A stretch of DNA of 64,000 nucleotides from Microcoleus sp. (GTDB lineage: Bacteria > Cyanobacteriota > Cyanobacteriia > Cyanobacteriales > Microcoleaceae), in the NCBI GenBank assembly GCA_042408215.1, contig JAYFMW010000026.1, positions 32,001 to 96,000 on the forward strand, in the 5' to 3' direction. Positions 9,967-64,000 of the stretch are shown here, piece after piece. Every line of letters starts with the position of its first letter. The first letter of the stretch is position 1. The position numbers and the translations under genes are program-made. The notes beneath the pieces are model-generated. The model was not told the origin of the DNA. It saw only the letters and a program-made list of their open reading frames with translations, and made no database searches.

Positions 9967-11340
9967 ATGAATGTTGAAGATGTTGTAGAATGGGCGAATA
10001 ATTCGATTTTTGATAAAACTGGAGAACATCTCACACCCCTACAGGAAGCAATACTAACGGGTGTTTGGCAAAGACAAAAATATCCTCAAATCGCTAAAGA
10101 CTTCCATTGTAGTGAATCTCACGTAAAAAAAGAAGCGGCTAAGTTATGGGAAAAGTTGCGTGAGGAATTAGGAGAAGACCTTAATAAATTTAATTTTCGT
10201 TCTAAGTTAGAGAAAAAGCATAGGGTTTCTCAAGGATCTAATTTTGGTTACTGCGTACAAATTAATGAGGGTAGTATTAATATTTGTGGTGAATGTTTAC
10301 ATCCTTTGAACGATGTACAAACCCGATCGCCCAATCCCCCTAACTCTCCCCAAAATAAAGAGCAATCGCCCATAATCGATTTAACAGACGCACCCGAATT
10401 AACCAGCTTTTACGATCGCACCTCAGAACTCTCCACCCTCAAACAATGGATATTACAAGCCCACACCCGCTTGATTACCGTCTACGGCTTAAGTGGAATT
10501 GGCAAAAGCGCGATCGCCCTCCAACTCATCGAACAAACTCAAACCGAATTTGACTATATTATTTGGTTAAGTCTCACCAACACACCCACACTCTCAACCC
10601 TCCAAACCGAACTCAAGCAATTTTTTGGGCGATCGCAACAAAACCCATTACCCACAATCATTGATTATTTTCGCACCTCACGCTGTTTAGTAATCCTTGA
10701 TGACGTACAAAATATTTTTAGAAGCAGTCAATTAGCAGGTCAATATTTAGCAGGCTATGAAGATTATAGCAAATTTTTCAAACAAATTGCCACATCCTCT
10801 CATCAGAGTTCTTTAATCCTCCTCAGTTGGGAAAAACCCAGAGAAATTACTGCTTTAGAAGCCGAAAACCGAGCTACCCGAACCTTACACCTCAAAGGGT
10901 TAGGGGAAAAATCGGCAGAAATTCTCAGAGAAAAAGGATTAGCCGATGAGGAAAAATGGTCAGACTTAATCACCCTTTATCAAGGACATCCTTACTGGTT
11001 AAATATTATAGCTGCAACAATTGTCGAATTATTTGACGGTAGCGTCTCCCGGTTTTTAGCAGATAAAAATGATATCTATTTAGGCGATTTAGAACCTATT
11101 TTAGCATCTCACCTAGAGCGTTTATCAGACTCAGAAAAAAAGGTATGTTACTGGTTAGCGACTCAAAATGAAGCTGTAGATATTTCACAACAACCTGCTG
11201 ACAGTGAATTATCTAAATCAGAATTCTGGCAAGCAATACAATCTTTAGCCCGACGCGGCTTAGTGGAAAAAGTGTTAGTAGGAGGGCGATCGAAGTTTCA
11301 GATCGATCCTGTATTTAAAGCATATATTCAATCTAAGTAA
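9967..11340 (+). CDS. NB-ARC/STAND ATPase with N-terminal HTH-like domain and no WD40 tail
   Basis: GLSGIGKS Walker A, LVILDDV Walker B, QGHP motif; the upstream ORF extension lies inside the MITE. Confidence 0.85.
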   Translation: MNVEDVVEWANNSIFDKTGEHLTPLQEAILTGVWQRQKYPQIAKDFHCSESHVKKEAAKLWEKLREELGEDLNKFNFRSKLEKKHRVSQGSNFGYCVQINEGSINICGECLHPLNDVQTRSPNPPNSPQNKEQSPIIDLTDAPELTSFYDRTSELSTLKQWILQAHTRLITVYGLSGIGKSAIALQLIEQTQTEFDYIIWLSLTNTPTLSTLQTELKQFFGRSQQNPLPTIIDYFRTSRCLVILDDVQNIFRSSQLAGQYLAGYEDYSKFFKQIATSSHQSSLILLSWEKPREITALEAENRATRTLHLKGLGEKSAEILREKGLADEEKWSDLITLYQGHPYWLNIIAATIVELFDGSVSRFLADKNDIYLGDLEPILASHLERLSDSEKKVCYWLATQNEAVDISQQPADSELSKSEFWQAIQSLARRGLVEKVLVGGRSKFQIDPVFKAYIQSK

Positions 11341-31600: not shown

Positions 31601-31786
31601 GGAACTGCTGTAGTTATTATTGCTTGGTTATGAGTGATTAGTTATGAGTTATTATTGCTTGGTTATGAGTGATTATTTATGGGTTATTAGCACAACTAAA
31701 AACCAATAACCAATAACCAATAACCAATAACCAATAACCAATAACCAATAACAACCAACAAATAACAAATAACTCTTGACTAATGA

Positions 31787-43131: not shown

Positions 43132-46100
43132 ATGATTGATTTTCGCAACACAAACACCCTCTGGTCTTCAATATTAGCCGAAACTTTACAGCGTCTGGGA
43201 TTAACTACCGCCGTCATTTCTCCCGGTTCGCGATCGGCACCATTAACAATAGCCTTTGCCCAGAACCACAAAATAGAAACTATTCCGGTTTTAGACGAAC
43301 GTTCAGCCAGCTTTTTTGCATTAGGAATTGCCAAAAAAACCCATTTACCCGTCGCACTAATTTGCACATCTGGAACCGCCGCAGCCAACTTTTATCCTGC
43401 GATCATAGAAGCCAGAGAAAGTCGAATTCCGCTGCTAATATTCACAGCCGATCGACCTCCCGAACTGCGGGATTGCCATGCTGGACAGGCTATCGACCAA
43501 GTAAAAATCTACGGCAACTATCCCAACTGGCAAGCCGAATTAGCCATCCCTTCTGCGTCCATAGGAATGTTAGGCTATTTGCGGCAGACGATCGTGTATG
43601 CTTGGGAGCGATCGCAATTTCCAACACCCGGCCCCGTTCACCTCAACATCCCCTTTCGCGACCCACTTATACCCGTTCCAGACATTGCTGTAGAAGCTTT
43701 AGAAACACAATTTGATATCGAAGATTTCTTTGCAGGATTAGAACCGATTGTTGCAGGAGAAACCTCTACCCCCCCCAGCCCCCCCTTAGCAAGGGGGGGA
43801 GCAGGAAGTCCAATAGAACCAAGCCCCCCCTTGTTAAGGGGGGGAGAAGAAAGTACAATGCAACAATGGCAGAAGTGCAGCAGAGGGATAATTATTGCGG
43901 GCGTTGCACAGCCTCAATTTCCCGAAAAATACTGTAGTGCGATCGCCCAAATCTCCAAATCATTAAACTGGCCAGTTTTAGCAGAAGGACTATCCCCAGT
44001 CAGAAACTACGCCCAACTCAACCCCCATCTAATTTCCACCTACGATTTAATCCTGCGAAACCACGAACTAGCAGATAAACTAACCCCAGAAATCGCCATT
44101 CAAATTGGAGACTTACCCACAAGCAAAGAACTACGAAACTGGTTAGACAAAACCCAACCCAGACGATATATAATCGACCCCAGCCACCACAACTTCGATC
44201 CCCTACAGGGCAAAACAACCCACCTGCGAACCTCCGTAGAGCATCTAGCCACTGCTATTTCCCCTCAAGTCCCCCCCCTGATTAAGGGGGGGTTAGGGGG
44301 GGTTCAAGATCGGGGCAACCACGGGGGGATTGCCCCTACAGACAATCAAACAGAAAACCAGAATTTTGTAGGGGTAGTGCCCCCGTGCCTACCCCTCACC
44401 ACCAATGAGGGCAACCACGGGGGGATTGCCCCTACAGACAATCAAACAGAAAACCAGAATTTTGTAGGGGTAGTGCCCCCGTGCCTACCCCTCACCACCA
44501 ATGAGGGCAACCACGGGGGGATTGCCCCTACAGACAATCAAACAGAAAACCAGAATTTTGTAGGGGTAGTGCCCCCGTGCCTACCCCTCACCACCAATGA
44601 GGGCAACCACGGGGGGATTGCCCCTACAGACAATCAAACAGAAAACCAGAATTTTGTAGGGGTAGTGCCCCCGTGCCTACCCCTCCCCACCAATGAGGGC
44701 AACCACGGGGGGATTGCCCCTACAGACAATCAAACAGAAAACCAGAATTTTGTAGGGGTAGTGCCCCCGTGCCTACCCCTCCCCACCAATGAGGGCAACC
44801 ACGGGGGGATTGCCCCTACAGACAATCAAACAGAAAACCAGAATTTTGTAGGGGTAGTGCCCCCGTGCCTACCCCTCACCACCAATGAGGGCAACCACGG
44901 GGGGATTGCCCCTACAGACAATCAAACAGAAAACCAGAATTTTGTAGGGGTAGTGCCCCCGTGCCTACCCCTCCCCACCAATCAGGGCAACCACGGGGGG
45001 ATTGCCCCTACAGACAATCAAACAGAAAACCAGAATTTTGTAGGGGTAGTGCCCCCGTGCCTACCCCTCCCCACCAATGAGGGCAACCACGGGGGGATTG
45101 CCCCTACAGACAATCAAACAGAAAACCAGAATTTTGTAGGGGTAGTGCCCCCGTGCCTACCCCTCACCACCAATGAGGGCAACCACGGGGGGATTGCCCC
45201 TACAGACAATCAAACAGAAAACCAGAATTTTGTAGGGGTAGTGCCCCCGTGCCTACCCCTCCCCACCAATGAGGGCAACCACGGGGGGATTGCCCCTACA
45301 GACAATCAAACAGAAAACCAGAATTTTGTAGGGGTAGTGCCCCCGTGCCTACCCCTCACCACCAATGAGGGCAACCACGGGGGGATTGCCCCTACAGACA
45401 ATCAAACAGAAAACCAGAATTTTGTAGGGGTAGTGCCCCCGTGCCTACCCCTCCCCACCAATCAGGGCAACCACGGGGGGATTGCCCCTACAGACAATCA
45501 AACAGAAAACCAGAATTTTGTAGGGGTAGTGCCCCCGTGCCTACCCCTCACCTCTCCATCAAAGGAATACCTCCAACTTTGGCACAACACCGAAACCCAA
45601 ATCAGACAAACAATAGACCAAAAAATATCAGCAATTCAAAACATAATTGAACCCAAAGTTTCCTGGCTGCTGTCCCAGATTTTGCCACCAGGAACACCAA
45701 TATTTATTGCTAACAGTATGCCAGTCAGAGATGTAGAGTTTTTCTGGAAGCCGAATCACTTAGAAATAAAACCTTTTTTCAATCGCGGCGCTAACGGCAT
45801 AGACGGCACATTATCAACAGCTATGGGAATAGCTCACCGCAATCAAAGCAGCATCATGTTAACAGGGGATTTAGCACTTTTGCACGACACGAACGGTTTT
45901 TTAATTAAACATAAATTTGTCGGTCATCTGACAATTATTTTAATTAATAACAACGGCGGTGGCATCTTTGAAATGTTGCCCGTTGCCAAATTTGACCCGC
46001 CATTTGAAGAGTTTTTTGCCACGCCGCAGCAGATCAACTTTGCTCAGTTGTGTGCAACTTATGGCGTGGAACACGAGATAATTGACGATTGGGAGCAGTT

Positions 46101-46221
46101 AAAAGAAAAATTAAGTTTTTTGCCAAATAGCGGGATTCGTGTCTTAGAATTGCCAACAAATAGGCGTACAGATGCTAAATGGCGGCAAGATCATCTAGGT
46201 AAATTTGCCAAAGATTTGTAA
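43132..46221 (+). CDS. menD: SEPHCHC synthase carrying a ~416-aa in-frame tandem repeat insertion
   Basis: SPGSRSAPL, DERSASFFALG, TSGTAAAN, NRGANGIDG, GDLALLHD and NNNGGGIF motifs. Confidence 0.93.
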   Translation: MIDFRNTNTLWSSILAETLQRLGLTTAVISPGSRSAPLTIAFAQNHKIETIPVLDERSASFFALGIAKKTHLPVALICTSGTAAANFYPAIIEARESRIPLLIFTADRPPELRDCHAGQAIDQVKIYGNYPNWQAELAIPSASIGMLGYLRQTIVYAWERSQFPTPGPVHLNIPFRDPLIPVPDIAVEALETQFDIEDFFAGLEPIVAGETSTPPSPPLARGGAGSPIEPSPPLLRGGEESTMQQWQKCSRGIIIAGVAQPQFPEKYCSAIAQISKSLNWPVLAEGLSPVRNYAQLNPHLISTYDLILRNHELADKLTPEIAIQIGDLPTSKELRNWLDKTQPRRYIIDPSHHNFDPLQGKTTHLRTSVEHLATAISPQVPPLIKGGLGGVQDRGNHGGIAPTDNQTENQNFVGVVPPCLPLTTNEGNHGGIAPTDNQTENQNFVGVVPPCLPLTTNEGNHGGIAPTDNQTENQNFVGVVPPCLPLTTNEGNHGGIAPTDNQTENQNFVGVVPPCLPLPTNEGNHGGIAPTDNQTENQNFVGVVPPCLPLPTNEGNHGGIAPTDNQTENQNFVGVVPPCLPLTTNEGNHGGIAPTDNQTENQNFVGVVPPCLPLPTNQGNHGGIAPTDNQTENQNFVGVVPPCLPLPTNEGNHGGIAPTDNQTENQNFVGVVPPCLPLTTNEGNHGGIAPTDNQTENQNFVGVVPPCLPLPTNEGNHGGIAPTDNQTENQNFVGVVPPCLPLTTNEGNHGGIAPTDNQTENQNFVGVVPPCLPLPTNQGNHGGIAPTDNQTENQNFVGVVPPCLPLTSPSKEYLQLWHNTETQIRQTIDQKISAIQNIIEPKVSWLLSQILPPGTPIFIANSMPVRDVEFFWKPNHLEIKPFFNRGANGIDGTLSTAMGIAHRNQSSIMLTGDLALLHDTNGFLIKHKFVGHLTIILINNNGGGIFEMLPVAKFDPPFEEFFATPQQINFAQLCATYGVEHEIIDDWEQLKEKLSFLPNSGIRVLELPTNRRTDAKWRQDHLGKFAKDL
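44313..45552. repeat. 13 tandem copies of a 96-bp unit made of two inverted GTAG-type REP-like palindromes
   Basis: GACAATCAAAC recurs every 96 nt from 44341 to 45493. Confidence 0.95.
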
Positions 46222-47297: not shown

Positions 47298-48164
47298 TTA
47301 ATCTCGGATTTCCAGGTTGTACTGGCGGCAGAGGGCGATCAGTTTTTGTTGGAAGCGATCGCGCACACTGTCTGGAGAGACGATCGCGCAATCTTCCCAA
47401 TAGGGGGCAATTTCGCGGAAAAACCAGAAGGTATTGAAAATCGGACGGGTGACTCGTCTAATTGGCGGATCGCCTTCTAAGTCGCTGACTTCCACATCGC
47501 CTTGCTTTCGTCTGTAGTTAAAGGCAAGCCTGCCGAATAAGTGAAATTCTACGGAAATTCGCTCTAGATCCGGCAACCAAGTTCGATCGACCGACATCAC
47601 CGCAGCATCTTCAATGCGATCGAGCAGCAGGGTCCAGTTGTGTTCGAGTCCCGGTACGTCTTGATTTCCGTCAGATTCTTCGCAGCGACACATTAAATAC
47701 TGTCGCTTTTCAATAGGGACAATCCGAGCGTGTAAGACTGTGTAACTCCAAAGGCGATCGGCTGCATCTCGATAGGAAAGGCGAAATGGTTGCTGTCTGT
47801 GGATAAAATTATCGATTTTTTGCCGCCAAGCAGGTAAAGGGTTGCTCAAAAACGCCTCGATTTGGGCCCGGAAGGGGAGAGTTAGTTCGCTGCGCGAGCT
47901 CAACAATTGGGCAATTGCCAGCGCTTCATCAATTTTGCCCGAGTCGAGCAATTGCTGTCGGGCGATGTCTAGGGCTTGGATGCGGGTTTGGGGCCAGTCG
48001 TGGTTGGGGGCGATCGTCAGTTGGCGGCGGGCGATCGCTTCTATCAGTTTGGAAATGTTCGGGCGATCGCCCCACGTCTTCCCGAATTCTTGGGCCAAGG
48101 CTTCCAACTGCGCTTTATCTCGTTCAGAAACAGACAGGGTGATCGATTGACCTTTGCGACTCAT
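47298..48164 (-). CDS. CRISPR-associated WYL-domain transcriptional regulator with N-terminal RHH-like domain
   Basis: MSRKGQSITLS..W.DRPNISKL; FRLSY.DA, RQYL, LDRI and FWFFRE motifs; divergent from type I-D cas3. Confidence 0.88.
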   Translation of the reverse strand: MSRKGQSITLSVSERDKAQLEALAQEFGKTWGDRPNISKLIEAIARRQLTIAPNHDWPQTRIQALDIARQQLLDSGKIDEALAIAQLLSSRSELTLPFRAQIEAFLSNPLPAWRQKIDNFIHRQQPFRLSYRDAADRLWSYTVLHARIVPIEKRQYLMCRCEESDGNQDVPGLEHNWTLLLDRIEDAAVMSVDRTWLPDLERISVEFHLFGRLAFNYRRKQGDVEVSDLEGDPPIRRVTRPIFNTFWFFREIAPYWEDCAIVSPDSVRDRFQQKLIALCRQYNLEIRD

Positions 48165-48261
48165 AAATGTACGGACACTTCTTCATTGTACGGGCTTGAT
48201 AATCTCAATTATCGGTGTCAATATGAGGAATATCCACTTTCTACGGACACAGATTCAGCAT

Positions 48262-50442
48262 ATGTCCGATTACCAGATTACCCTCAAATCCGTTTACTCC
48301 TGTCCCGCTGCGGAAATTCCCAAAGGAGTGAAATTACCGGAAAATTGGACGCTTTCTTGGCATCAACTTGAAACTTTAAAGGCAATTCGCGATCCGAATA
48401 TTGATGTCATTTTCAACTCAGCTATTACTAGCGACGGCAAAAGTTTAGCCGCTTTCCTAGAAACATTGCAGACATATTGTTGTGCAGTGGCGCTATATCC
48501 TACTAATGAACTGGCGCGAGATCAGGAGACTCAAATTAAGCGCTATATCGAACAATTCCAGCCCGAACATCAACCCCGCGTTGTGCGACTCAGCGGCTCG
48601 GAATTAGAAATCTATGCAGAAAATGAAAAGCTGAGAAAAGCAGCCGCGATCGCATCTCGCACAGGTCAATCAGAGATTTTATTAACTAACCCTGATATCT
48701 TGCACTATCTCCACCGAGGAGCGTATTTAAGCTCTGAAGATAGCCCCGATAAACTGTGGGGTCGCATCGACAAAGATTTTGACCTGTTCATTTTTGATGA
48801 ATTTCATGTTTTTGCTGCTCCTCAGATTGCCAGCGTCATCAATACCCTGTTATTAATTAGTCATACAAACCGCCGAAAAAAGTTTGTATTTCTGTCAGCA
48901 ACTCCAGACGAGCAATTAATTAGCAGACTAGAAACAGCAGGGTTTCGCTGTCAAACTATCGACCCTTTAAAAGCAGGAAAATATCGGTTTCCCGATCGCC
49001 CTGCGGAAATCGAACAGTTGAAATCAGACTCCTGGCGGCAGATATTGAGGGAAAGTACGCTGACTTTTATTTCCCTAGAACCAACTTCAAAAGCTTCTGA
49101 AACTTGGCTGAAAGACAGCGCAAATCACATCCTGACTCACTTTAAACACAATCCGGGAAGTAAAGGAGCTATTATCCTGAATTCAATTGCTGCCGTCAAG
49201 CGGCTGACACCATTTTTTCGGAAATTGTTCGCGCCTCACGGTTTAGTTGTTGGCGAAAATACTGGGTTGTCGGGAAAAACGGAAAAAGAGCGATCGCTCT
49301 CGTCAGACTTAGTTCTCGGTACTAGCACCATTGATGTCGGGGTAGACTTCAAAATCAATTTGCTGATTTTTGAATCCGCCGATGCGGGTAACTTCATTCA
49401 AAGATTGGGAAGGTTGGGGCGACACGATGGGTGCGATCGCAATGGGGAGTTTATTCAGTTTCAAAATTTCACAGCCATCGCACTCACCCCTAATTTCTTA
49501 GTCGAACGCTTATTTGCAGGCGATACTGCGACTTTAGAGTCTAATGGAATTTACGATCGTCCTTTTTTCTATCAACAAATTCGCGAAAAGTACCGCCAAA
49601 TCAACAATTTTGAGGGATATTATTCGCGGTGGGGTGCGGTGCAGTCAGTTCAAATTTGTTGGGAATTAGGGCACAGGACAATTAAACAGCAGTACGCATC
49701 AAGTCAGAAAGCTTTTCAGGAAGCTGCTCAAAAAGTATTTAAAACTAGCTTGGGGAAAGTGGCCGGTAATATTAAACAGTGGGGCAAAGAGTGGAAAGAG
49801 CGATCGGGAAATAAAACAGGAAATCCGATCGTTGAAGATGCTAGCAGTTTTCGAGGTTCTAGTCCCCTGCAATGCGGCATCTGCGATTTAACCGATTCCC
49901 ATGAGGCAGACAAATTTAAAACTTACGATTTACCAGGAATTTTGAGCAACTTGGAAATCGAACCGATGACGGAATCTGCATTTATGCAAATGTTGAAGGA
50001 GACATCTGAACGCCTTGGGCAACCAATTGCCAAAGGTCGATTTAAACACTGTCTGGCTTTTTTGAAGTTGCGTAGTTATCGGGAGGAAAGACTGAATTGG
50101 AAATTTACTTATTCGGGAAATTTAGAGGAAAACGCTGCTGTTTGGAAAGTTCAGGTGTTGACGGGGATTGAGGTTGTGCAACCTGAGAATTATTGGATCG
50201 GGGAAATCAACAAGCGTTTGAAGAAGCAAGCATTGGTTTGTTATGTGCTGCGTTATCCGGTGGCTGAAGTGCGATCGCGCCTGCGACTGCCGGTGCACTT
50301 TCAGATTTATCCGATTTGCGATCGGTACAGTATCCACGATGGGACTGCACCTTATTCGATCGCCTTTGGGCAGTCGGCGCTGCTTGTGGACACGCTGGCC
50401 CACTGGCTCAAGAGTAAGGGGGATGAAGTATGGATTGCGTAG
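48262..50442 (+). CDS. cas3: Type I-D Cas3' helicase without HD domain
   Basis: DGKSL, LYPTNELARDQ, DEFH, LSATP, TSTIDVGVDF and QRLGRLGRH motifs. Confidence 0.93.
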   Translation: MSDYQITLKSVYSCPAAEIPKGVKLPENWTLSWHQLETLKAIRDPNIDVIFNSAITSDGKSLAAFLETLQTYCCAVALYPTNELARDQETQIKRYIEQFQPEHQPRVVRLSGSELEIYAENEKLRKAAAIASRTGQSEILLTNPDILHYLHRGAYLSSEDSPDKLWGRIDKDFDLFIFDEFHVFAAPQIASVINTLLLISHTNRRKKFVFLSATPDEQLISRLETAGFRCQTIDPLKAGKYRFPDRPAEIEQLKSDSWRQILRESTLTFISLEPTSKASETWLKDSANHILTHFKHNPGSKGAIILNSIAAVKRLTPFFRKLFAPHGLVVGENTGLSGKTEKERSLSSDLVLGTSTIDVGVDFKINLLIFESADAGNFIQRLGRLGRHDGCDRNGEFIQFQNFTAIALTPNFLVERLFAGDTATLESNGIYDRPFFYQQIREKYRQINNFEGYYSRWGAVQSVQICWELGHRTIKQQYASSQKAFQEAAQKVFKTSLGKVAGNIKQWGKEWKERSGNKTGNPIVEDASSFRGSSPLQCGICDLTDSHEADKFKTYDLPGILSNLEIEPMTESAFMQMLKETSERLGQPIAKGRFKHCLAFLKLRSYREERLNWKFTYSGNLEENAAVWKVQVLTGIEVVQPENYWIGEINKRLKKQALVCYVLRYPVAEVRSRLRLPVHFQIYPICDRYSIHDGTAPYSIAFGQSALLVDTLAHWLKSKGDEVWIA

Positions 50443-50443
50443 A

Positions 50444-50589
50444 ATATCAAGCCCTAATAGGGTTTGGGTTAAGTCAGGTAGGAAGGTAGAGGAACGAACG
50501 CCATTAGGAGCGCAGCTAATGTTTTCAATCCCTAATAGGGGGTTAAGCTATCAATAAAAATTAATAAGCTTTTCTACCTGTCCACACCC
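50444..50589 (-). ncRNA. Degenerate repeat-spacer-repeat mini-array (crRNA-like regulatory RNA)
   Basis: 50522-50540 matches the reverse-complemented array repeat at 17/19 and 50444-50465 at 18/22; both keep the CCCT-ATT-AGGG hairpin; spacer about 50481-50521. Confidence 0.8.
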
Positions 50590-50595
50590 TACATC

Positions 50596-50636
50596 AGTAT
50601 ACCAAGGATGACAACTATGTTTAGATCGTTTATACT
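50596..50636. promoter_or_regulatory. Back-to-back promoters: minus-strand extended -10 TGGTATACT (50604-50596) and plus-strand ATGACA-N17-TATACT (50608-50636)
   Basis: Sigma70-like consensus matches read directly; not experimentally mapped. Confidence 0.6.
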
Positions 50637-50664
50637 CAGACAATGGAAAGCTTCGCGGCTCTGT

Positions 50665-50697
50665 GAGCAACGATCGCGAGTAGGAACACAGATATGT
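50665..50697. promoter_or_regulatory. Predicted target site of the mini-array guide
   Basis: 23/30 identity between 50489-50518 and 50665-50694, with mismatches at guide positions 6, 10, 12, 18, 20, 24, 30. Confidence 0.75.
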
Positions 50698-50844
50698 AAT
50701 CGCAGCCCTTCTTGTTCTTTAGACAGAACGGTTTTTAGCGTCACTTTATTTGAGTGGGGGTATAACGCCCCCCTTCTGCTCCTGTCAGCAGTCAGCAGCC
50801 GTGAGTCTTTCCAGTCTGTAAAAACTCAAAAGGAGACATTCACA

Positions 50845-51096
50845 ATGCCAAAGCCAAAACGCTCTGGTGAGGGAGGGCCTTTGCTATTTATTCCCTATTC
50901 CCGGAAACCTTTTTTGGAAAACAAAAAGAAAGTTCGAGGGAGAAATCGCCACCCCTTTGAGTTGCTGGAAAAAGTTCAGAACTTATTAGAAACTGCACTG
51001 GACAGAAATGAGTTTGAGTCAGAGGAGGTCAAAGCAGAAGTCTATGACTTTTTAGTAATCCTCCGAGGCTCTAAAAAGGTATCTCAAAGGCGCTAG
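50845..51096 (+). CDS. Orphan 83-aa basic protein, candidate CRISPR-regulated toxin or regulator
   Basis: AAGGAG RBS, ATG at 50845, downstream terminator; no family recognised. Confidence 0.6.
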   Translation: MPKPKRSGEGGPLLFIPYSRKPFLENKKKVRGRNRHPFELLEKVQNLLETALDRNEFESEEVKAEVYDFLVILRGSKKVSQRR

Positions 51097-51128
51097 ATAG
51101 TAGCACCTTACGAATTTTCATTAGTTAG

Positions 51129-51175
51129 GCTCTACAGGAGTAGTGTAACTACATAAGAGCCTGTAGAGCTCTTTT
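51129..51175 (+). terminator. Putative intrinsic terminator after the 83-aa ORF
   Basis: GCTCTACAGG (51129-51138) / CCTGTAGAGC (51160-51169) followed by TCTTTT. Confidence 0.55.
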
Positions 51176-51220
51176 GTCAAAAATCTCTATCAAAGATAAG
51201 TGAGTTCTTTCATAGACTCC

Positions 51221-51363
51221 CAGGGCTGTTTCATTCTCTTGTAGGGGCGGTGCCCCCGTGCCCGCCCTAGCTCTCAAACACATACAAAATGTCGATGAAG
51301 AGGGTCGGCACGGGGGCACGACCCCTACAAAATTATCGTTTTCTTGAGAATGAAATAGCCCTG
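51221..51363. mobile_element. MITE, 143 bp, 18-bp TIRs, 10-bp TSD CATAGACTCC
   Basis: CAGGGCTGTTTCATTCTC / GAGAATGAAATAGCCCTG (17/18); TSD at 51211-51220 and 51364-51373. Confidence 0.92.
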
Positions 51364-51386
51364 CATAGACTCCCTAGAGGCATAAA

Positions 51387-54300
51387 ATGGCTAAAAAACG
51401 TCAAAAACCAGATGAAGAGTATCAACAACTCTCATTATTTGATATCCCAGTTAATTTGAACTCTGAGCGATCGGATGATCCAGATGATGACTGGTTGCAA
51501 GATGAAGAATTAGGGTCAAACTTTCAAACGTCCGATCGCACAATCGAACCTCAAACTCGCGACTTACTAACCCTCAAACTCTTGCGATCAGCCATTCAGA
51601 GTCAAAATCCAGGCGATCGCGTCATGGCAGACTTCGCAGAATATGTCTTGCCAAATCTGCTGCGAGTTGCCATTGGCGTCACAGCCAAAGGCGGCAAATT
51701 TTTTGACGAACTCGATCGCAAACAAGGAAAAGAGAACGTCAGGCGCGATAACGCAGGCGATCAGTCCCTAAATACTCACCTGCTAAATGGATTATTTCCC
51801 GCTAATTTAATTGAACAGCGGTTAGAAAAACTCGATACCACCGTGCGGCGATCCGTAGGAGAAAAAGAACGGCGGTTAGTAATTGCTGGATTTATTCTCC
51901 ACGACTTTGAAAAATTCCCCGATGTCCCCAACGATTGCCGCAAGTTACCACTAGAAAAGCACCGTCAAATTATTGATGAAAAAGTGCGACAGTTAGGACT
52001 AGATAGCTTGATCAATCCCGACGATCCAGATGCTTATCGAGAATACATTGACGATTTGCTCTGCCTTGCTTACAACGCTCAGCGGCGTTGGGATACTAAC
52101 TGGAATTTTTCCGAATTTGGGTTAAATCCAGTGTTGCGCGATCGCACACTCCGCAGTCTTTCAGACTTAACCTGTTTAGCAGATTCCCTAGCATCTATTA
52201 TCAAACATCCCCAAGATGCAGAAAATACCAGACTAAACGAGTTAATCCACAGCCTCAGCGACGGACAATTAAAATTCACTTATCACAGCATCGCTGAAAA
52301 CAGAGGCGTACTTACTAACGTCGTCAATAACGCTTTAATGGAAGTGCATACGGCGCTGAATACCGACGCTTGCACCTACTATGAACCACTGCTTTACCTA
52401 CCAACAGGTGTAATTTACCTAGCACGGCGGGATGCTCCTGCTATTTCAATTGCAGACTTGCCCGAACGGGTAGTTAGCAAGATTAAACAACTCTGCGCCG
52501 GACAATTGCAACGGCGACAAACTGGATTTGGTAGAGATGGTAAAGGCATGAAATATGCCGAGTATTATAACCTGTTTTTTGATCCGTCAGAGTTGATGCT
52601 AGTTGCTGTTGATGCTACTTTACGCATTCTCAAAATAGGAAAAAACTCTGTTGCCAAAAGTCGCAGCGATAATCTGATCAAATTTCAGCGTCAGGATGTT
52701 TTATCTGCCGATTATAAATTCAATTTTGAGGACGATATTCGGATTGACCAAATTGCTGAACTTGGGGACTTAGTGAGTCGCAAGATTTGGGGAGAACAGG
52801 TTAATACCATCGAAACTGCACGCAAGAAAGACAAAAAACTACCCGCCCTAACTCATCTAGATATTGTCGATGAAATTGCTAAGTTTTGGAACCTGTCCGA
52901 CTATCTACCAGCCCTAAGAGAAATTCAACGGATTAATGAAAGCCTCAAAGAACTTAAACTAAAAGGCAATACAGGCGGCGTTCCTTACGAATGGTACTAT
53001 TTAGCAGCAAAGTACCTAGAACATCACCCAGGAATTGAGGATGTGCGGGAAGTTTGCGAACAGGCGATCGCCCACATTTCCCAAATGATTAAACCCATTC
53101 TTTCACAGTACAAATTGCCCGACGGTTGGGACGATTTGCGGTTGTGGGTAACGCGGGTTGTTATGTTACCCGGAAATACACCATTGGACACAGCATCCGC
53201 TGACGTATTTTTAGATGAATTGGAACGCTACCAACTCGCCAAAAAACAGGGTAGAGGAAGACAGTTAATCTGTTCGATTTCCCATTCAGCTTACACGGTG
53301 ACAGAACAAATGGAATCAGCCGTTTTGTTCACCCCTCAAGTTTACACTAACAAACAAATGTTGGGAGGTTCTAACGCCAAACGGAATATTTCTAGTATTG
53401 CAGGTTTGGAAATGATGCTGAGGCAAATTTTAATGAATCAAACTCAAGCTGTGGGCAAAAAATTTGAAGATGGCAAATATCGCTATCTCTATTTTTATCC
53501 CACATATTACTTCACCCCAGAAACAAATAAGTTTCTGCAAAAAGCCTACACTAGCATTGCCCAAACCCGCTTTGATACCAGCATACGCAATCATTTTATC
53601 AGCAAAGATTTGCAAGCCGATTTTGGGCGCGATCGCTACCAAAGCATCGATGCTTTCCTCATAGATGAAAACATCGAACCAGGAAAAGACCGCACCTTCA
53701 AACTTTCCTATCCCGAAGACCAACCTCTAACATTTTACTTCATGGCGCTTCCCCCCGGTAGAGATGCAACAGATACCGAATCTTGGGTAATGCCAGCTTG
53801 GCTAGCTTTTGCTTTCCCGATGATTCTGGATGTCAAAACCGTAGTTTCAGAGTCGCCAATTCCGCCTTTTAACGACGGTGCAGAATTTGAAGAAACCGTA
53901 TTTCTTGACAGTGTACCCCAAGCTTTTAGGGTATTGACCAAGCGCGATCGCTTTCGTCTCGACTATATTTTAGAAGGATGGGAGGAAAACGGCAAATCTT
54001 ATCCAGCACCTTTGAATGTGTTAACCGCTGCTTATGCGATTCACCTTGATGTTAATGCAAAACAAGGGAAGTCCGGTTATGACTCCAACTGGGGAAAATT
54101 AACTGAACTCGCCACTGATTTTGAAACCAGCCCGCTTTATGTGTTTAGCTACCTAAATAAGTGGGTGCGGAAACAGAAAAATGAAACGGCATCAATTCAA
54201 AAGATTAAGCTTTATGCTTATCATTTTTACCCTTGCTTTGACTCCTATGCCCAACTATAATTTCATGATCAGAGGAACGGATCGACTGAGACAACCGCAT

Positions 54301-58753: not shown

Positions 58754-59761
58754 ATGGGAACAGTTTACATTACTCAAGAAGATGCTTTTATCGGCAAGAA
58801 TGACGAACGTCTTACCGTTAAAGCAGACAAAAAAAATTTGTTGGATGTGCCGTTAATTAAAATTGATGGTGTTGTTGCTTTGGGACGCGCCACAGTTTCT
58901 CCGGCTGTGGTTGTGGAACTTTTGGAACGTCACATTCCTTTAAGCTTTCTGACTGAAACGGACGTTATTTAGGCAGGCTGGAACCGGAAATGACGTAAAA
59001 ATATTTTTGTGCGAAAAGCTCAGTGGCAAGCAGCAGGCGAATCTGAAAAGTCAGTACATTTAGTCAGGGGTTTTGTACGAGGTAAACTCAAAAATTACCG
59101 CAATACTTTGTTGGAATGTCAGCGCAAATATTCTCCACAAGATTTTGAAAAATCGATCGCCCAATTGAAACAAGTCATCGCGTCAATAGACAAAACTGCG
59201 AGTATTAATTCCCTGCGAGGATTAGAGGGGGCGGGTAGTGCGACTTATTTTGGCTGCTTCAATCGGCTGATTCGCGTGCCTGAATTTAGCTTTGAAGTTC
59301 GCCGTCGTCGTCCGCCGACCGATCCGGTAAATTCTCTGTTAAGTTTGGGATATTCTCTGTTGCGGCACGATGTTCAAAGTGCGGTGAATATTGTGGGGTT
59401 CGATCCGTATTTGGGATATCTTGCATTTCGAGCGCTATGGCCGTCCTTCCTTAGCACTGGATTTGATGGAAGAATTTCGACCGTTGGTAGTTGATGCTGT
59501 AGTGTTAACAGCGATCAATTTGCAGAAAGTTGCTCCTAATGATTTTACGGCAGAACCGTTGAGCGGTGCGGTTTCTTTGACAAAAGAAGCGCTGCACAAT
59601 TTTTTACGACTTTACGAGCAAAAGAAACAGTCAAAATTTAAGCATCCAGTGATGGGAAAGTCGTGTGCACTTATCAAGAAGCTTTTGAAATTCAAGGGCG
59701 GCTGATGGCTAAGTATTTGATGGGTGAAATTGACAAGTATCCACCTTTAGTTTTGTACTAG
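58754..59761 (+). CDS. cas1: Cas1, split by several frameshifts
   Basis: Three consecutive fragments: MGTVYITQ.., LRGLEGAG..RRPPTDPVNSLLSLGY, SLALDLMEEFRP; ends KYPPLVLY stop. Confidence 0.88.
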
Positions 59762-60290: not shown

Positions 60291-63200
60291 GCCGCAAAAT
60301 ACCTAAAACCCTATCAGGGATTGAAACCCTGGCAAATTCAACTCTTCCATTACTCGATCGCGTGCCGCAAAATACCTAAAACCCTATCAGGGATTGAAAC
60401 GCCGGTGGGGATATTCATGCGATTATTTCTGCCGCCGCAAAATACCTAAAACCCTATCAGGGATTGAAACGATAATTTTTTTTCAGCAAGCCACTGAACA
60501 TCGCGCCGCAAAATACCTAAAACCCTATCAGGGATTGAAACTCCATAATCGATCGAGCTAAAGCCGACTGCGATCGGGGCCGCAAAATACCTAAAACCCT
60601 ATCAGGGATTGAAACGGGCAGATTGATTTTGAGCTGCGATCGCAAGCTGTGGGCTAGGCCGCAAAATACCTAAAACCCTATCAGGGATTGAAACGATCAA
60701 GCATCTCCCGAGCTTCAACGTATAATCTGTGAGCCGCAAAATACCTAAAACCCTATCAGGGATTGAAACACAGTGCTCTATGACGAGTAACGCAATGGCC
60801 GCCAGCCGCAAAATACCTAAAACCCTATCAGGGATTGAAACGCTGAATGAATCATCGCTCAGTAAAAAATTACCATGCCGCAAAATACCTAAAACCCTAT
60901 CAGGGATTGAAACTTAGCGGCTAATGCTACTGATACCGTAGCATTAGCGCCGCAAAATACCTAAAACCCTATCAGGGATTGAAACCCCGCAATTGGGCTA
61001 AGCGGCTGTTCGTCGCTTCTTTCGCCGCAAAATACCTAAAACCCTATCAGGGATTGAAACCAGAATCACCGTTCTCAGAACGTGCAGCTAGCTTGGCCGC
61101 AAAATACCTAAAACCCTATCAGGGATTGAAACAGCCATTTTGCCGACATCGGCAAAATGGGCACCCCAGCCGCAAAATACCTAAAACCCTATCAGGGATT
61201 GAAACGAAAATGGCTGCTACGATGCCTCTATTTCTAAATGCCGCAAAATACCTAAAACCCTATCAGGGATTGAAACTTATTTTGAGATAATCCTGGCTAT
61301 AGATGACGGGCCGCAAAATACCTAAAACCCTATCAGGGATTGAAACAGAGGAAGTGTGTTCGCCCACGGGCGAAAAAACCTATGCCGCAAAATACCTAAA
61401 ACCCTATCAGGGATTGAAACTTCGCGGTGTTTTTAGCTTAATCTGCAAAGCGCTAAAGCGCCGCAAAATACCTAAAACCCTATCAGGGATTGAAACAATC
61501 TCGGATTAGCCCTAGCACCGCCTAATACGAGCCGCAAAATACCTAAAACCCTATCAGGGATTGAAACTTAACCGACTTGACCCCCTTGTCGATCGCAGAT
61601 GCGCCGCAAAATACCTAAAACCCTATCAGGGATTGAAACGAACTAACTACAGCTTGTTGGACGCTAGGAAGAAGTGCACCGCCGCAAAATACCTAAAACC
61701 CTATCAGGGATTGAAACAATCAGAACAGGAGCTAATATCTGTGCCGTTGAGCCGCAAAATACCTAAAACCCTATCAGGGATTGAAACAACACTAACTTAC
61801 GGGGAGCAATCCCTCTTTTCTTTCGCCGCAAAATACCTAAAACCCTATCAGGGATTGAAACGGAAGCAATATTAACAATACCCCGTCCGCTCTTTTGCCG
61901 CAAAATACCTAAAACCCTATCAGGGATTGAAACATTATAGTTACTTATATAAATCAAATTTGTAGCAAATTGCCGCAAAATACCTAAAACCCTATCAGGG
62001 ATTGAAACAGAACCGGGGAGGATTAGGACTAAACAATGGGGTGCCGCAAAATACCTAAAACCCTATCAGGGATTGAAACTCCATCAAGATTACCTATCGC
62101 GCCCCGGTACAACCCCACGCCGCAAAATACCTAAAACCCTATCAGGGATTGAAACCTCGTGGCTAGCGATCGCCTCCCGTACTTTCTCCCATGCCGCAAA
62201 ATACCTAAAACCCTATCAGGGATTGAAACCGTTGCTTGGACTTTTTCTGGCGTTACTTTGGATTCAGCCGCAAAATACCTAAAACCCTATCAGGGATTGA
62301 AACGTAGGAGTCTTGGTGACTCGCTATATGCTCTTCTAGCCGCAAAATACCTAAAACCCTATCAGGGATTGAAACACAAAATTGGCTCCGAGAAAACGAA
62401 AGCTTGATGGCCGCAAAATACCTAAAACCCTATCAGGGATTGAAACGATTGACATTTAGCCGATGTTCGGCAGACCTGCGCCGCAAAATACCTAAAACCC
62501 TATCAGGGATTGAAACGAACTTGCGCTTGAATTTGTGACGTTTTTTGCTGAACAGCGCCGCAAAATACCTAAAACCCTATCAGGGATTGAAACCTATTTC
62601 CTTGTGATACCGTTGCAGCCACAAAGGGCCGCAAAATACCTAAAACCCTATCAGGGATTGAAACTCAATACAGGAATCTTCATCAGGGAATTGAATAGCC
62701 GCAAAATACCTAAAACCCTATCAGGGATTGAAACGGATGCCCCCGCAGCGGAACAACAATTTGTCAAAGTTTGCGCCGCAAAATACCTAAAACCCTATCA
62801 GGGATTGAAACCTGTGTCTGGTTTTCTGAGCGCCGCCAGATTGTAACTGCCGCAAAATACCTAAAACCCTATCAGGGATTGAAACTGATAATCTTAAAAG
62901 CACTTCGCCAGCGCCATATAGCCGCAAAATACCTAAAACCCTATCAGGGATTGAAACTGGGTAGATGAGATAGATGATTGCAATAGGTGGGCCGCAAAAT
63001 ACCTAAAACCCTATCAGGGATTGAAACGGGCCACAGGCTATTGTATATTTTGTCCTCTTTGGGCCGCAAAATACCTAAAACCCTATCAGGGATTGAAACA
63101 TCTATTAATTTCACTCCAATTAATGACGATTTTTGCGCCGCAAAATACCTAAAACCCTATCAGGGATTGAAACTATTGCCAGCAAACCATTTTGCCTGCT

Positions 63201-64000
63201 GCAAAAATTGCCGGCCGCAAAATACCTAAAACCCTATCAGGGATTGAAACTTTTTCCTGCGAATTCCTCCTCCCATTTCTTGAGCCGCAAAATACCTAAA
63301 ACCCTATCAGGGATTGAAACGAGAGCTATTCCCGTCACTCATCGCTTCGGCCATCAGCCGCAAAATACCTAAAACCCTATCAGGGATTGAAACCTGCAAA
63401 CTTGCAAGCTGCTTCAAACTTCCAACTTGCCGCAAAATACCTAAAACCCTATCAGGGATTGAAACGTCCTCTACCCCCGTCGTTTCAGTGATTACTGCTG
63501 GGCCGCAAAATACCTAAAACCCTATCAGGGATTGAAACAAACATCCAAGACTTTAATTCCTTATGCGCCGCCCAAGCCGCAAAATACCTAAAACCCTATC
63601 AGGGATTGAAACTACACCCACCGAAACTGAGTATCAAAGATATAAACAGCCGCAAAATACCTAAAACCCTATCAGGGATTGAAACTTAATCAAAATCCGG
63701 CTGTTAGTAGCAGCCGGGAGCCGCAAAATACCTAAAACCCTATCAGGGATTGAAACGTTCCCAGTGCCAAAGATGCAGAAATTTCAACATACGCCGCAAA
63801 ATACCTAAAACCCTATCAGGGATTGAAACCAGGCGCAGAAAGGACTCTAGGTGGTGGATTGACGCCGCAAAATACCTAAAACCCTATCAGGGATTGAAAC
63901 ACCTTTCGGTGGGCGAAATTGGTGCTACCGATGTGCCGCAAAATACCTAAAACCCTATCAGGGATTGAAACATTACAGGACTATTTCTAATTTCACAAGT
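60291..64000 (+). CRISPR. Type I-D CRISPR array, 37-bp repeat GCCGCAAAATACCTAAAACCCTATCAGGGATTGAAAC, 51 repeats counted, continues past the window
   Basis: Apparently identical repeats with unique spacers of about 33-42 nt; ATTGAAAC 3' end. Confidence 0.99.

Follow-up and report, generated by a model that had tools for sequence, protein, structure and literature searches.

A candidate single-guide RNA gene and its putative cis target upstream of cas10d in type I-D CRISPR loci of Microcoleus and related cyanobacteria

Mini-arrays lying between cas3 and cas10d of type I-D clustered regularly interspaced short palindromic repeat (CRISPR) loci, together with cargo genes, have been described as a computational prediction (Shmakov et al. 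2023, PMC10120712). Cas-regulating RNAs named CreR were reported for types I-B, I-E and V-A, and creA-like elements were noted for type I-D in Figure S7 of the same work (Liu et al. 2023, 10.1101/2023.03.10.532045). The type I-D Cascade of Synechocystis binds single-stranded RNA (ssRNA) at ~11 nM whatever the flank (Schwartz et al. 2022, PMC9123187) and also binds single-stranded DNA (ssDNA; PMC10212523), and the physiological role of this single-strand targeting is listed as an open question in a review (PMC10212523). The present analysis concerns a stretch of 64,000 nucleotides from Microcoleus sp. (GenBank assembly GCA_042408215.1, contig JAYFMW010000026.1, positions 32,001 to 96,000), termed the window, whose + strand carries a complete type I-D locus: cas3', cas10d, csc2, csc1, cas6, cas4, a broken cas1 and cas2. 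Within the 944 bp that separate cas3' from cas10d lie a minus-strand mini-array, a putative target of its guide, and an open reading frame (ORF) of 83 amino acids (aa). An original prediction, made from the sequence alone, had pointed out the mini-array, the spacer match and the ORF, and this observation as a whole is confirmed.

All features of the cargo-regulating I-D mini-array clade of Shmakov et al. are present at the locus. The kind of element, which had been called hidden in the original prediction, is already in print as a computational prediction (Shmakov 2023; Liu 2023). Not found in the available parts of these sources are a target with no protospacer-adjacent motif (PAM), the unpaired guide positions 1-3, the pairing over ~26-30 nt, and a guide that is always complementary to the sense strand.

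Mini-array, guide and target in the window

As seen in Table 1, the mini-array is read from the minus strand, and it begins 2 nt past the cas3' stop codon. Its two degenerate repeats, psiR1 and psiR2, are placed one CRISPR period apart around a single spacer beside the cas operon, as in the CreA/CreR class. Also as in that class, the part with the 5' handle is retained in psiR1 and the hairpin in psiR2, which would supply the 3' end of the guide. The 8-nt handle of psiR1 is ATTGAAAA (50529-50522), with an expected mature 5' end at 50529. In psiR2, the hairpin is kept at 10/11 while the handle is degraded to 5/8, as read from the sequences. When the 3' 19-mer of the repeat (hairpin plus 8-nt handle) was searched in the window with at most 3 mismatches, a single match outside the array was obtained. 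It has 2 mismatches, where 0.02 such matches would be expected by chance, and is located on the minus strand at 50522-50540. The 5' halves of both copies are degenerate in gapped alignments, and neither copy matches the full 37-mer ungapped at 10 or fewer substitutions. Both hairpins are present in the minimum free energy (MFE) fold of the minus-strand RNA. Additionally, psiR2 was found in all 9 Microcoleus-group loci that were compared first, and an Rfam search of six loci returned only CRISPR-DR5, on the psiR2 copies. Only the parts that a single guide would need appear to be preserved, and the mini-array has the apparent anatomy of a single-guide CRISPR RNA (crRNA) gene. A near-palindrome in the first 20 nt of the spacer was considered as a selected feature and rejected; it is broken by changes at positions 1 and 5 in five relatives.

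Among ungapped non-self matches of the spacer in the window, the best has 25/41 identities (runner-up 23) and lies 176 nt from the guide, a partly complementary cis site upstream of the cas genes as in the CreA/CreR class. The identity alone is at chance level (~0.67 such matches expected per window), and part of it is contributed by a HIP1-like GCGATCG, which inflates matches of this sort. The distribution of the mismatches is informative: they fall at positions 1, 2, 3, 6, 10, 12, 18, 20, 24, 30 and 34-39. Within positions 4-33, every sixth position is mismatched (5/5) and 23 of the other 25 are matched (hypergeometric P = 1.5e-4). One guide base in every six is flipped out by the Cas7 backbone of class 1 effectors. 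The pattern therefore resembles the footprint of a Cascade-bound guide. Moreover, when non-sixth positions 4-30 are scored across the 7.36-Mb genome, the target is the single best non-self site at 20/22, followed by two sites at 18 and twelve at 17. The significance of the putative target would thus rest on its mismatch pattern, its genome-best rank and its conservation and covariation, not on identity. The hairpin-bearing repeats, the 41-nt spacer and the handle named in the original prediction are borne out by the repeat comparison and the MFE fold, and the spacer match reported there coincides with the paired core of this site (guide positions 4-33).

The published type I-D PAM is GTN (PMC9123187, PMC10212523). 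For the PAM of this organism, 198 spacers extracted from three large arrays (contigs C10, C12 and C26) were searched against their own genome, a partial match inside an array being dropped. Self-matches elsewhere in the genome carry GTT at -3 to -1 in 3/3 cases. The PAM slot of the target in the window is ATT, not GTN. A canonical target, with GTN and a seed match, was also sought in the window; GTN was present at 0/19 non-self seed-like sites (11/15). With a 9-nt handle, GTT-flanked sites appeared at 31661-31700 and 10387-10426, both at 11/15, and were rejected as being at chance level. The three self-matches themselves (C17:4832-4864, C17:6605-6638 and C11:89931-89963) derive from spacers of the contig C12 array, and two are perfect or near-perfect. 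These sites may belong to prophages or mobile elements that are targeted, or the self-targeting may be tolerated.

Conservation and covariation among type I-D loci

Five genomes of the same genus carry the same cassette at 92-94% identity, without a 144-bp insertion, resembling a miniature inverted-repeat transposable element (MITE), that is found in the window. In these relatives, the target and its surroundings (50645-50718) are identical, and the spacer differs only at positions 1, 5, 36 and 40, with positions 6-35 identical. Three more genomes of the genus have a mini-array at the same place with different spacers and cargo. In two of these (L029 and L030), a different spacer matches a different site, again on the same strand, with positions 1-3 unpaired, the sixth positions mostly unpaired, and the flank GATT.

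The survey comprised the best 80 of 258 cas10d relatives in species-representative genomes, with 3 kb upstream of each, and the window, giving 81 loci. A sequence was counted as repeat-like if an 11-mer upstream of cas10d matched with at most one mismatch. Such sequences were found on the minus strand in 72/81 loci and on the plus strand in 2/81, and two-repeat mini-arrays, by a criterion of our own, in 64/81. Targets were scored on 22 positions, leaving out positions 1-3 and the sixth positions, so that a low match at the omitted positions is not forced by the search. An in-locus target at a score of at least 17/22 was obtained for 43 of the 64 mini-arrays. The null maxima were 13-16 in 120 foreign spacer-locus trials and 13-17 in 60 shuffled-spacer trials. 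The minus strand carries all 43 targets, at distances of 151-686 nt to the right of the guide, so that the guide is complementary to the mRNA and non-template strand in every case. Target-like sequences were present in 43/64 loci with a mini-array versus 3/17 without, and 2 of those 3 have a lone repeat-like sequence. For the remaining 21 of the 64 mini-arrays, no target reached 17/22; several of these are failures of detection by the script, and family-like targets missed in this way are present in L070, L071 and L100. No target was found for the family E spacers, including those of the close relative L031-L033.

After greedy clustering of spacer plus target at 90% identity, 18 non-redundant pairs were left of the 43. 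Among these, the match fraction is 0.33-0.44 at positions 1-3 and 0.61-1.0 at the non-sixth positions from 4 to 29. It is 0.39, 0.22, 0.33, 0.06 and 0.17 at positions 6, 12, 18, 24 and 30, respectively, and beyond position 30 it is near random (0.78 at position 32). The PAM-proximal seed pairing of the CreA/CreR class is therefore absent, pairing being spread over positions 4-29/33, and so is its canonical PAM, as GTN occupies the PAM slot in 0/43 targets. A different flank is conserved across families, namely G(-4) in 16/18, A(-3) in 15/18 and T(-1) in 16/18. No repeat hairpin was found within 45 nt on the 5' side of any of the 18 targets, which implies that the target is not a second guide gene.

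Far from being random, the spacers form a few families that are conserved across genera. In five family representatives, sixth positions are mismatched in 22/25 cases versus 15/110 at the other positions (Fisher 1.3e-12). When every spacer was compared with every target, 14-21 of 22 positions matched within the same family (17-21 if C and C' are split) and 5-14 between families. The candidate guide and its target thus appear to covary across 4-5 specificity families. A comparison of cyanobacterial I-D loci for such covariation had been proposed beforehand as a check, and its outcome is positive.

Leader, downstream genes and locus setting

The target lies within a predicted structured leader (Table 1). 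The region 50588-50860 folds with an MFE of -79.5 kcal/mol (z -3.46; 0/200 shuffles as good). In the aligned leaders of family A, 94.2% of cells are paired versus 36-53% with slid partners, and 8 pairs show double changes versus 3.2 +/- 0.9 in shuffles (0/500). This alignment includes 14 of 16 non-redundant leaders, L080 and L106 being omitted as divergent, which favours structure, and the structure was derived from the same alignment on which it was tested. Many of the G-U pairs can form on the + strand only. Helices analogous to the one in the window are seen in the leader of L051 and, with covariation, in family A leaders. No Rfam family was found for the leader in six loci.

Contigs from four metatranscriptome runs of three studies were compared with 50300-51500; they have no strand information and may include DNA. 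Both target and 83-aa ORF are covered by contigs of all three studies. The predicted cis target, which has the guide on one side and the ORF and cas10d on the other, is specific, and it lies in a stretch found in metatranscriptome contigs. The like contig ends in two studies hint faintly at a discrete RNA of ~515 nt. In this putative RNA, the target would be located 63-109 nt from the left end and the whole ORF would be included. The left ends at 50588 and 50594 are upstream of the + promoter motif and coincide with the predicted minus start at ~50589, leaving the promoter layout unsettled. Of the transcription signals in the original prediction, the back-to-back promoter motifs do occur at their places, but the 3 sigma70-like motifs found are not above the 1.3 +/- 1.2 expected by chance. 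The proposed + start at ~50643 does not agree with contigs that begin upstream of it. A terminator had also been assigned to the ORF. Its hairpin can be read from the sequence by eye, although it was not flagged by a terminator scan, and contig X2 passes through it into cas10d.

Table 1. Positions of the described features in the window (position 1 is its first nucleotide)
Feature	Position	Strand	Remarks
cas3' (type I-D helicase)	48154-50442	+	NCBIfam TIGR03158, E 9.9e-115
psiR2, downstream degenerate repeat	50480-50444	-	gapped alignment to array repeat; hairpin 50462-50452
Mini-array spacer, 41 nt	50521-50481	-	position 1 = 50521; between psiR1 and psiR2
psiR1, upstream degenerate repeat	50558-50522	-	3' 19 nt equal array repeat at 17/19
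Divergent control region	50559-50643		sigma70-like motifs: + 50608-50636, - 50623-50596
Predicted structured leader	50637-50821	+	helix ~50637-50663 with 50793-50821 encloses target
Protospacer-like target	50697-50657	- (spacer sense)	guide complementary to + strand; paired core 50694-50665 = guide positions 4-33
Target 5' flank GATT	50698-50701	-	PAM slot ATT, not GTN
83-aa ORF	50845-51096	+	ribosome-binding site (RBS) AAGGAG 50830-50835; 148 nt downstream of target
Stem-loop, possible leaky terminator	51128-51176	+	hairpin 51128-51169, 10-bp stem, 21-nt loop, then TCTTTTG
MITE-like insertion, 144 bp	51221-51364		between 83-aa ORF and cas10d; absent from 5 relatives
cas10d	51387-54260	+	NCBIfam TIGR03174, E 5.5e-282
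Canonical CRISPR array	60291-63971	+	51 identical 37-nt repeats within window; source of repeat consensus
RNA contig X1	50594-51103		510 nt; 0 differences
RNA contig X3	50588-51106		521 nt; 17 differences
RNA contig X5	50687-50996		310 nt; 0 differences
RNA contig X2	50656-51210, then 51364 into cas10d		806 nt; MITE skipped; 23 differences over both pieces

The 83-aa ORF and its AAGGAG RBS are present as predicted, and the ORF is conserved, with 19 invariant columns in a nine-member alignment. Its family is very small: 13 profile matches were obtained among 1.84 billion representatives, two of which are probably spurious long proteins, and word-index homologues are Microcoleus hypothetical proteins only. 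No match was found in NCBIfam, Pfam or PADLOC, sequences of the PDB gave only E 0.23 or worse, and a Foldseek search of the PDB gave nothing at E <=0.001. In the AlphaFold2 model, a disordered N-terminus is followed by three helices (pLDDT 73.5). Members of this family stand right after the target in the window, L051, L066 and L067.

The mini-array follows the cas3' stop codon in every locus examined, and in 17 of the 18 non-redundant loci the next + ORF begins 58-208 nt downstream of the target. That next ORF varies. It can be a member of the 83-aa family, another small ORF (family C), other cargo, or cas10d itself (L040). Other cargo pairs, named by eye from translations, are nucleotidyltransferase/HEPN-like, DUF433/PIN-like and DUF1016-like. 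Since the same module directly precedes cas10d in L040 and is followed by unrelated cargo in other loci, the element under conserved control would be the operon and not the 83-aa ORF; what is conserved appears to be the guide, the target and the downstream operon rather than a given cargo gene.

Several other observations were made on the small ORFs and on Cas10d. In family A loci (L040:2533-2727, L059:1000-1203 and others), a conserved ORF of 65-68 aa is located between mini-array and target; it has no Pfam match and looks by eye like a small DNA-binding protein. The Cas10d proteins of this clade have an N-terminal extension of ~75 aa (51387-51610 in the window) that is missing from the solved Synechocystis Cas10d. 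In 13/18 non-redundant loci the extension contains QLSLF, QLSLL or QLSLW at residues 13-18. QLxLF or QLxLP is found near the N-termini of small ORFs that directly follow the target (L051, L061, L063, L066, L067, L090, L099 and L108). We take these motifs of the extension and the small ORFs to resemble the bacterial sliding-clamp-binding pentapeptide.

Downstream of cas10d, csc2, csc1, cas6 (below the cut-off) and cas4 were recognized with NCBIfam, and cas1 pieces and cas2 with Pfam. The cas1 gene is split in three over 58754-59705. The piece at 58754-58972 corresponds to Pfam Cas1 positions 1-66, and the piece at 59009-59494 to 83-219 without a change of frame, so that an in-frame stop is implied; the piece at 59391-59705 corresponds to 218-283 in a different frame, which implies a frameshift. 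The broken cas1 may mean that adaptation at this locus is defunct, or it may reflect assembly errors. The MITE-like element has a G+C-rich inverted repeat and many copies in the genus, and it occurs at this place only in this genome. It includes a promoter-like TTGAGA-16-TAGACT at 51344-51371, just upstream of cas10d. The menD ORF (43132-46221) owes its length of 1029 aa to a 96-bp unit repeated 12.9 times (44313-45552) inside the open frame; by eye, this unit and the MITE have a G+C-rich motif in common. A minus-strand ORF of 288 aa (47298-48164) abuts the cas3' start; it has no NCBIfam or Pfam match and may be a regulator or spurious. Elsewhere in the genome, away from the three large arrays, a further three-repeat mini-array (C17:710114-710252) and a lone repeat-like sequence (C17:671005) were found with the same hairpin and handle.

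Proposed mechanism, alternatives and known systems

The mini-array may be a functional single-guide crRNA gene through which Cascade regulates its own synthesis, possibly by way of single-stranded RNA or DNA; the considerations for and against this reading are taken to be in balance. Cas6 would cut at both kept hairpins and release a guide that starts near 50529 with the handle ATTGAAAA and continues into the 41-nt spacer, and this guide would be loaded into type I-D Cascade. Guide positions 4-33, with the sixth bases flipped, would then pair with the target core in the leader of the rightward unit, as the geometry and the covariation suggest. The unit under control would consist of the 83-aa ORF followed by cas10d and the Cascade genes. 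By analogy with CreR, binding would lower its expression, and free Cascade carrying this guide would thereby limit the production of both Cascade and cargo. The repression would be relieved if Cascade were lost or inhibited, or if crRNAs from the array competed.

Recognition of the target would most likely involve a single strand, namely nascent leader RNA or the non-template strand of the DNA, and not PAM-licensed double-stranded DNA. The reasons for this are the absence of a GTN PAM, the lack of pairing at positions 1-3, and the constant complementarity of the guide to the sense strand. A type I complex is not expected to form a double-stranded R-loop where the PAM is missing and the 5' end is left unpaired. 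The same two features would keep Cas10d and Cas3' from cutting their own locus. Single-strand recognition is moderately favoured on these grounds, and only moderately because predicted RBS access is unchanged when the target is blocked in silico, the target is largely paired in the predicted leader, and the flank may be a binding-only PAM. The more specific proposal, that I-D Cascade binds its own operon leader as a single strand and that the PAM-less flank and the unpaired positions 1-3 were selected against cleavage by Cas10d and Cas3', is tentative and is offered as a possibility somewhat short of probable.

Several points weigh against this account. Most of the target is base-paired in the MFE fold, which would hinder the binding of RNA. 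Forcing 50665-50694 to be unpaired in silico leaves the accessibility of the ORF's RBS and AUG unchanged, so that a simple RNA switch is not evident, and the leader of L051 folds no better than shuffles (z 0.21). The strandless contigs of the four runs do not cover the mini-array (50423-50586), and no processed guide was seen in them, although such contigs are uninformative for small RNA. In the survey, the decision to leave positions 1-3 and the sixth positions out of the score was taken after two loci had been seen. The 43 cases amount to 4-5 families, possibly of common descent, so the orientation and the flank do not represent 43 independent events. The G-A-N-T flank has no explanation in this account and might act in double-stranded binding as a PAM of a weak or alternative kind, and the PAM of the organism rests on 3 self-matches and on literature from another species. 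Finally, ssRNA or ssDNA targeting by type I-D in vivo is not shown, according to the review (PMC10212523).

The conserved flank leads directly to the main alternative, classical CreR-type control, in which guide-loaded Cascade would form a roadblock on a double-stranded target at or after the promoter and G-A-N-T would serve as a weak binding-only PAM. In the sources available, the tested crRNA-like regulators (I-B, I-E, I-F and V-A) all act on promoter DNA. Conservation of the flank suggests that something reads it, and a target 63-109 nt past the contig starts and 14-54 nt past the predicted + start would be well placed for a roadblock. However, GTN is missing from all 43 targets while the organism's own protospacers have GTT, and the heart of the type I seed, positions 1-3, is unpaired where the tested CreR/CreA pairing is described as seed-proximal and PAM-flanked. 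A promoter roadblock also has no need of strict complementarity to the sense strand. This explanation is thus regarded as rather unlikely. An addiction module like CreTA, which could coexist with autoregulation, was also among the proposals of the original prediction. In such a module, the 83-aa ORF would be a toxin that guide and Cascade keep silent, and a cell that lost its cas genes would be harmed. The ORF does stand directly behind the target with a strong RBS, toxin-antitoxin genes are enriched behind I-D mini-arrays (PMC10120712), and the cargo pairs seen by eye in other loci (nucleotidyltransferase/HEPN-like, DUF433-like and PIN-like) are in keeping with it. The N-terminus of the ORF, we presume, is like a sliding-clamp-binding peptide. 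The searches of protein families, structures and a defence library nevertheless gave no match that would back a toxin; the ORF region appears in RNA libraries of three studies and would not be tightly silent if the contigs are RNA; and the same module precedes cas10d in L040 and unrelated cargo elsewhere. Addiction is accordingly considered improbable.

The remaining explanations deny that the site is a target at all. If the target were a decayed repeat-spacer copy, the two would be paralogous guides, both aimed at a third site and with sixth positions free to drift. Its orientation, the same as that of the mini-array in 43/43 loci, would fit, and by eye the 5' flank of family A targets is faintly like the 3' end of the repeat. 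Against this, the absence of a hairpin-like repeat within 45 nt 5' of the 18 targets would preclude Cas6 processing, the seed positions 1-3 are the least alike, and no third site in the genome scores above 18/22; the paralogy is therefore very hard to credit. It may also be supposed that the mini-array is left over from an old inverted array and matches by chance, or that it encodes a Cas-independent antisense RNA. The chance-level identity and the inflation by the HIP1-like motif agree with a relic, but the six-base periodicity of the mismatches, the position of the genome-wide best site next to the guide, and the retention of mini-arrays in 64/81 loci with guide-target covariation do not, and plain antisense pairing offers no reason for free sixth bases. 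These readings are already disfavoured and have barely any likelihood left.

If the preferred single-strand reading is true, the leader would be the first natural physiological target for single-strand binding by type I-D, and the system would be a CRISPR autoregulator that follows type III-like rather than type I rules. The window and ~40 relatives provide a natural guide-target pair that is PAM-less and matched to the sense strand, making the single-strand role of I-D directly testable. The rules for finding crRNA-like regulators would also be widened, as searches by PAM and seed would miss such a class. If the double-stranded roadblock holds, the locus would be one more member of a predicted group and would matter mainly as a well-documented example, backed by covariation, for a subtype without a tested case.

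No experimental test of a type I-D mini-array, nor a PAM-less sense-strand rule, was found in the accessible parts of the literature; the published Nucleic Acids Research version or its Supplementary file 6 may hold such a statement. The accessible text of Liu et al. contains no I-D experiment that could be found, and no mention of a mini-array in the I-D cassette was found in the accessible part of a preprint on Cas6 of Anabaena 7120. In the interpretation of the original prediction, a guide with a cis target and covariation has stood, whereas a new kind of element, CreA/CreR target rules and the + start have not, and no match pointing to a toxin was found.

Compared with the I-D mini-arrays of Shmakov et al., the likeness is close. 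Those elements also lie just after cas3 and upstream of cas10d, are read opposite to cas3, have a better kept upstream repeat, and are followed by toxin-antitoxin-like or other cargo that varies among relatives, with a predicted target upstream of it. The difference is that their targets are put 'within the likely promoter regions' and that PAMs are given only for I-E and I-F1 examples. In the accessible text, no statement was found on missing GTN, unpaired positions 1-3, the sixth-position pattern, a sense-strand rule or a structured leader; Supplementary file 6 may list the same sites. With the I-D Cascade studied in vitro (PMC9123187, PMC10212523), the locus shares PAM-independent, sequence-specific single-strand binding as its presumed mode, and a Cas7 backbone geometry like that of type III with every sixth base unpaired. 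The targets used there were artificial and fully matching, with no natural single-stranded target, whereas binding at the present locus is suggested by sequence.

CreR (Liu 2023) is similar in being a degenerate mini-CRISPR in a cas locus, with the 5' handle kept in psiR1 and the 3' part in psiR2, a partial match upstream of effector genes, and a proposed autorepression that senses free Cascade. Its tested targets have a canonical PAM and consecutive seed-proximal identity (15 nt in Salmonella I-E), unlike the target in the window, which has no PAM, leaves positions 1-3 unpaired and pairs through positions 4-33. CreTA of haloarchaeal type I-B, in which CreA represses CreT, shares the mini-array guide, the cis target and the adjoining small gene inside the cas locus, and a module of this form could make cells depend on Cascade. 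The CreTA/CreR-like character first proposed thus applies to the anatomy and the cis target, and not to the target rules, given the missing GTN PAM, the unpaired positions 1-3 and the ~26-30 nt of pairing. CreT is a small RNA toxin (Liu 2023, 10.1101/2023.03.10.532045), while the neighbour of the target in the window is a gene for an 83-aa protein, and the target rules differ from those of CreTA in the same way as from those of CreR.

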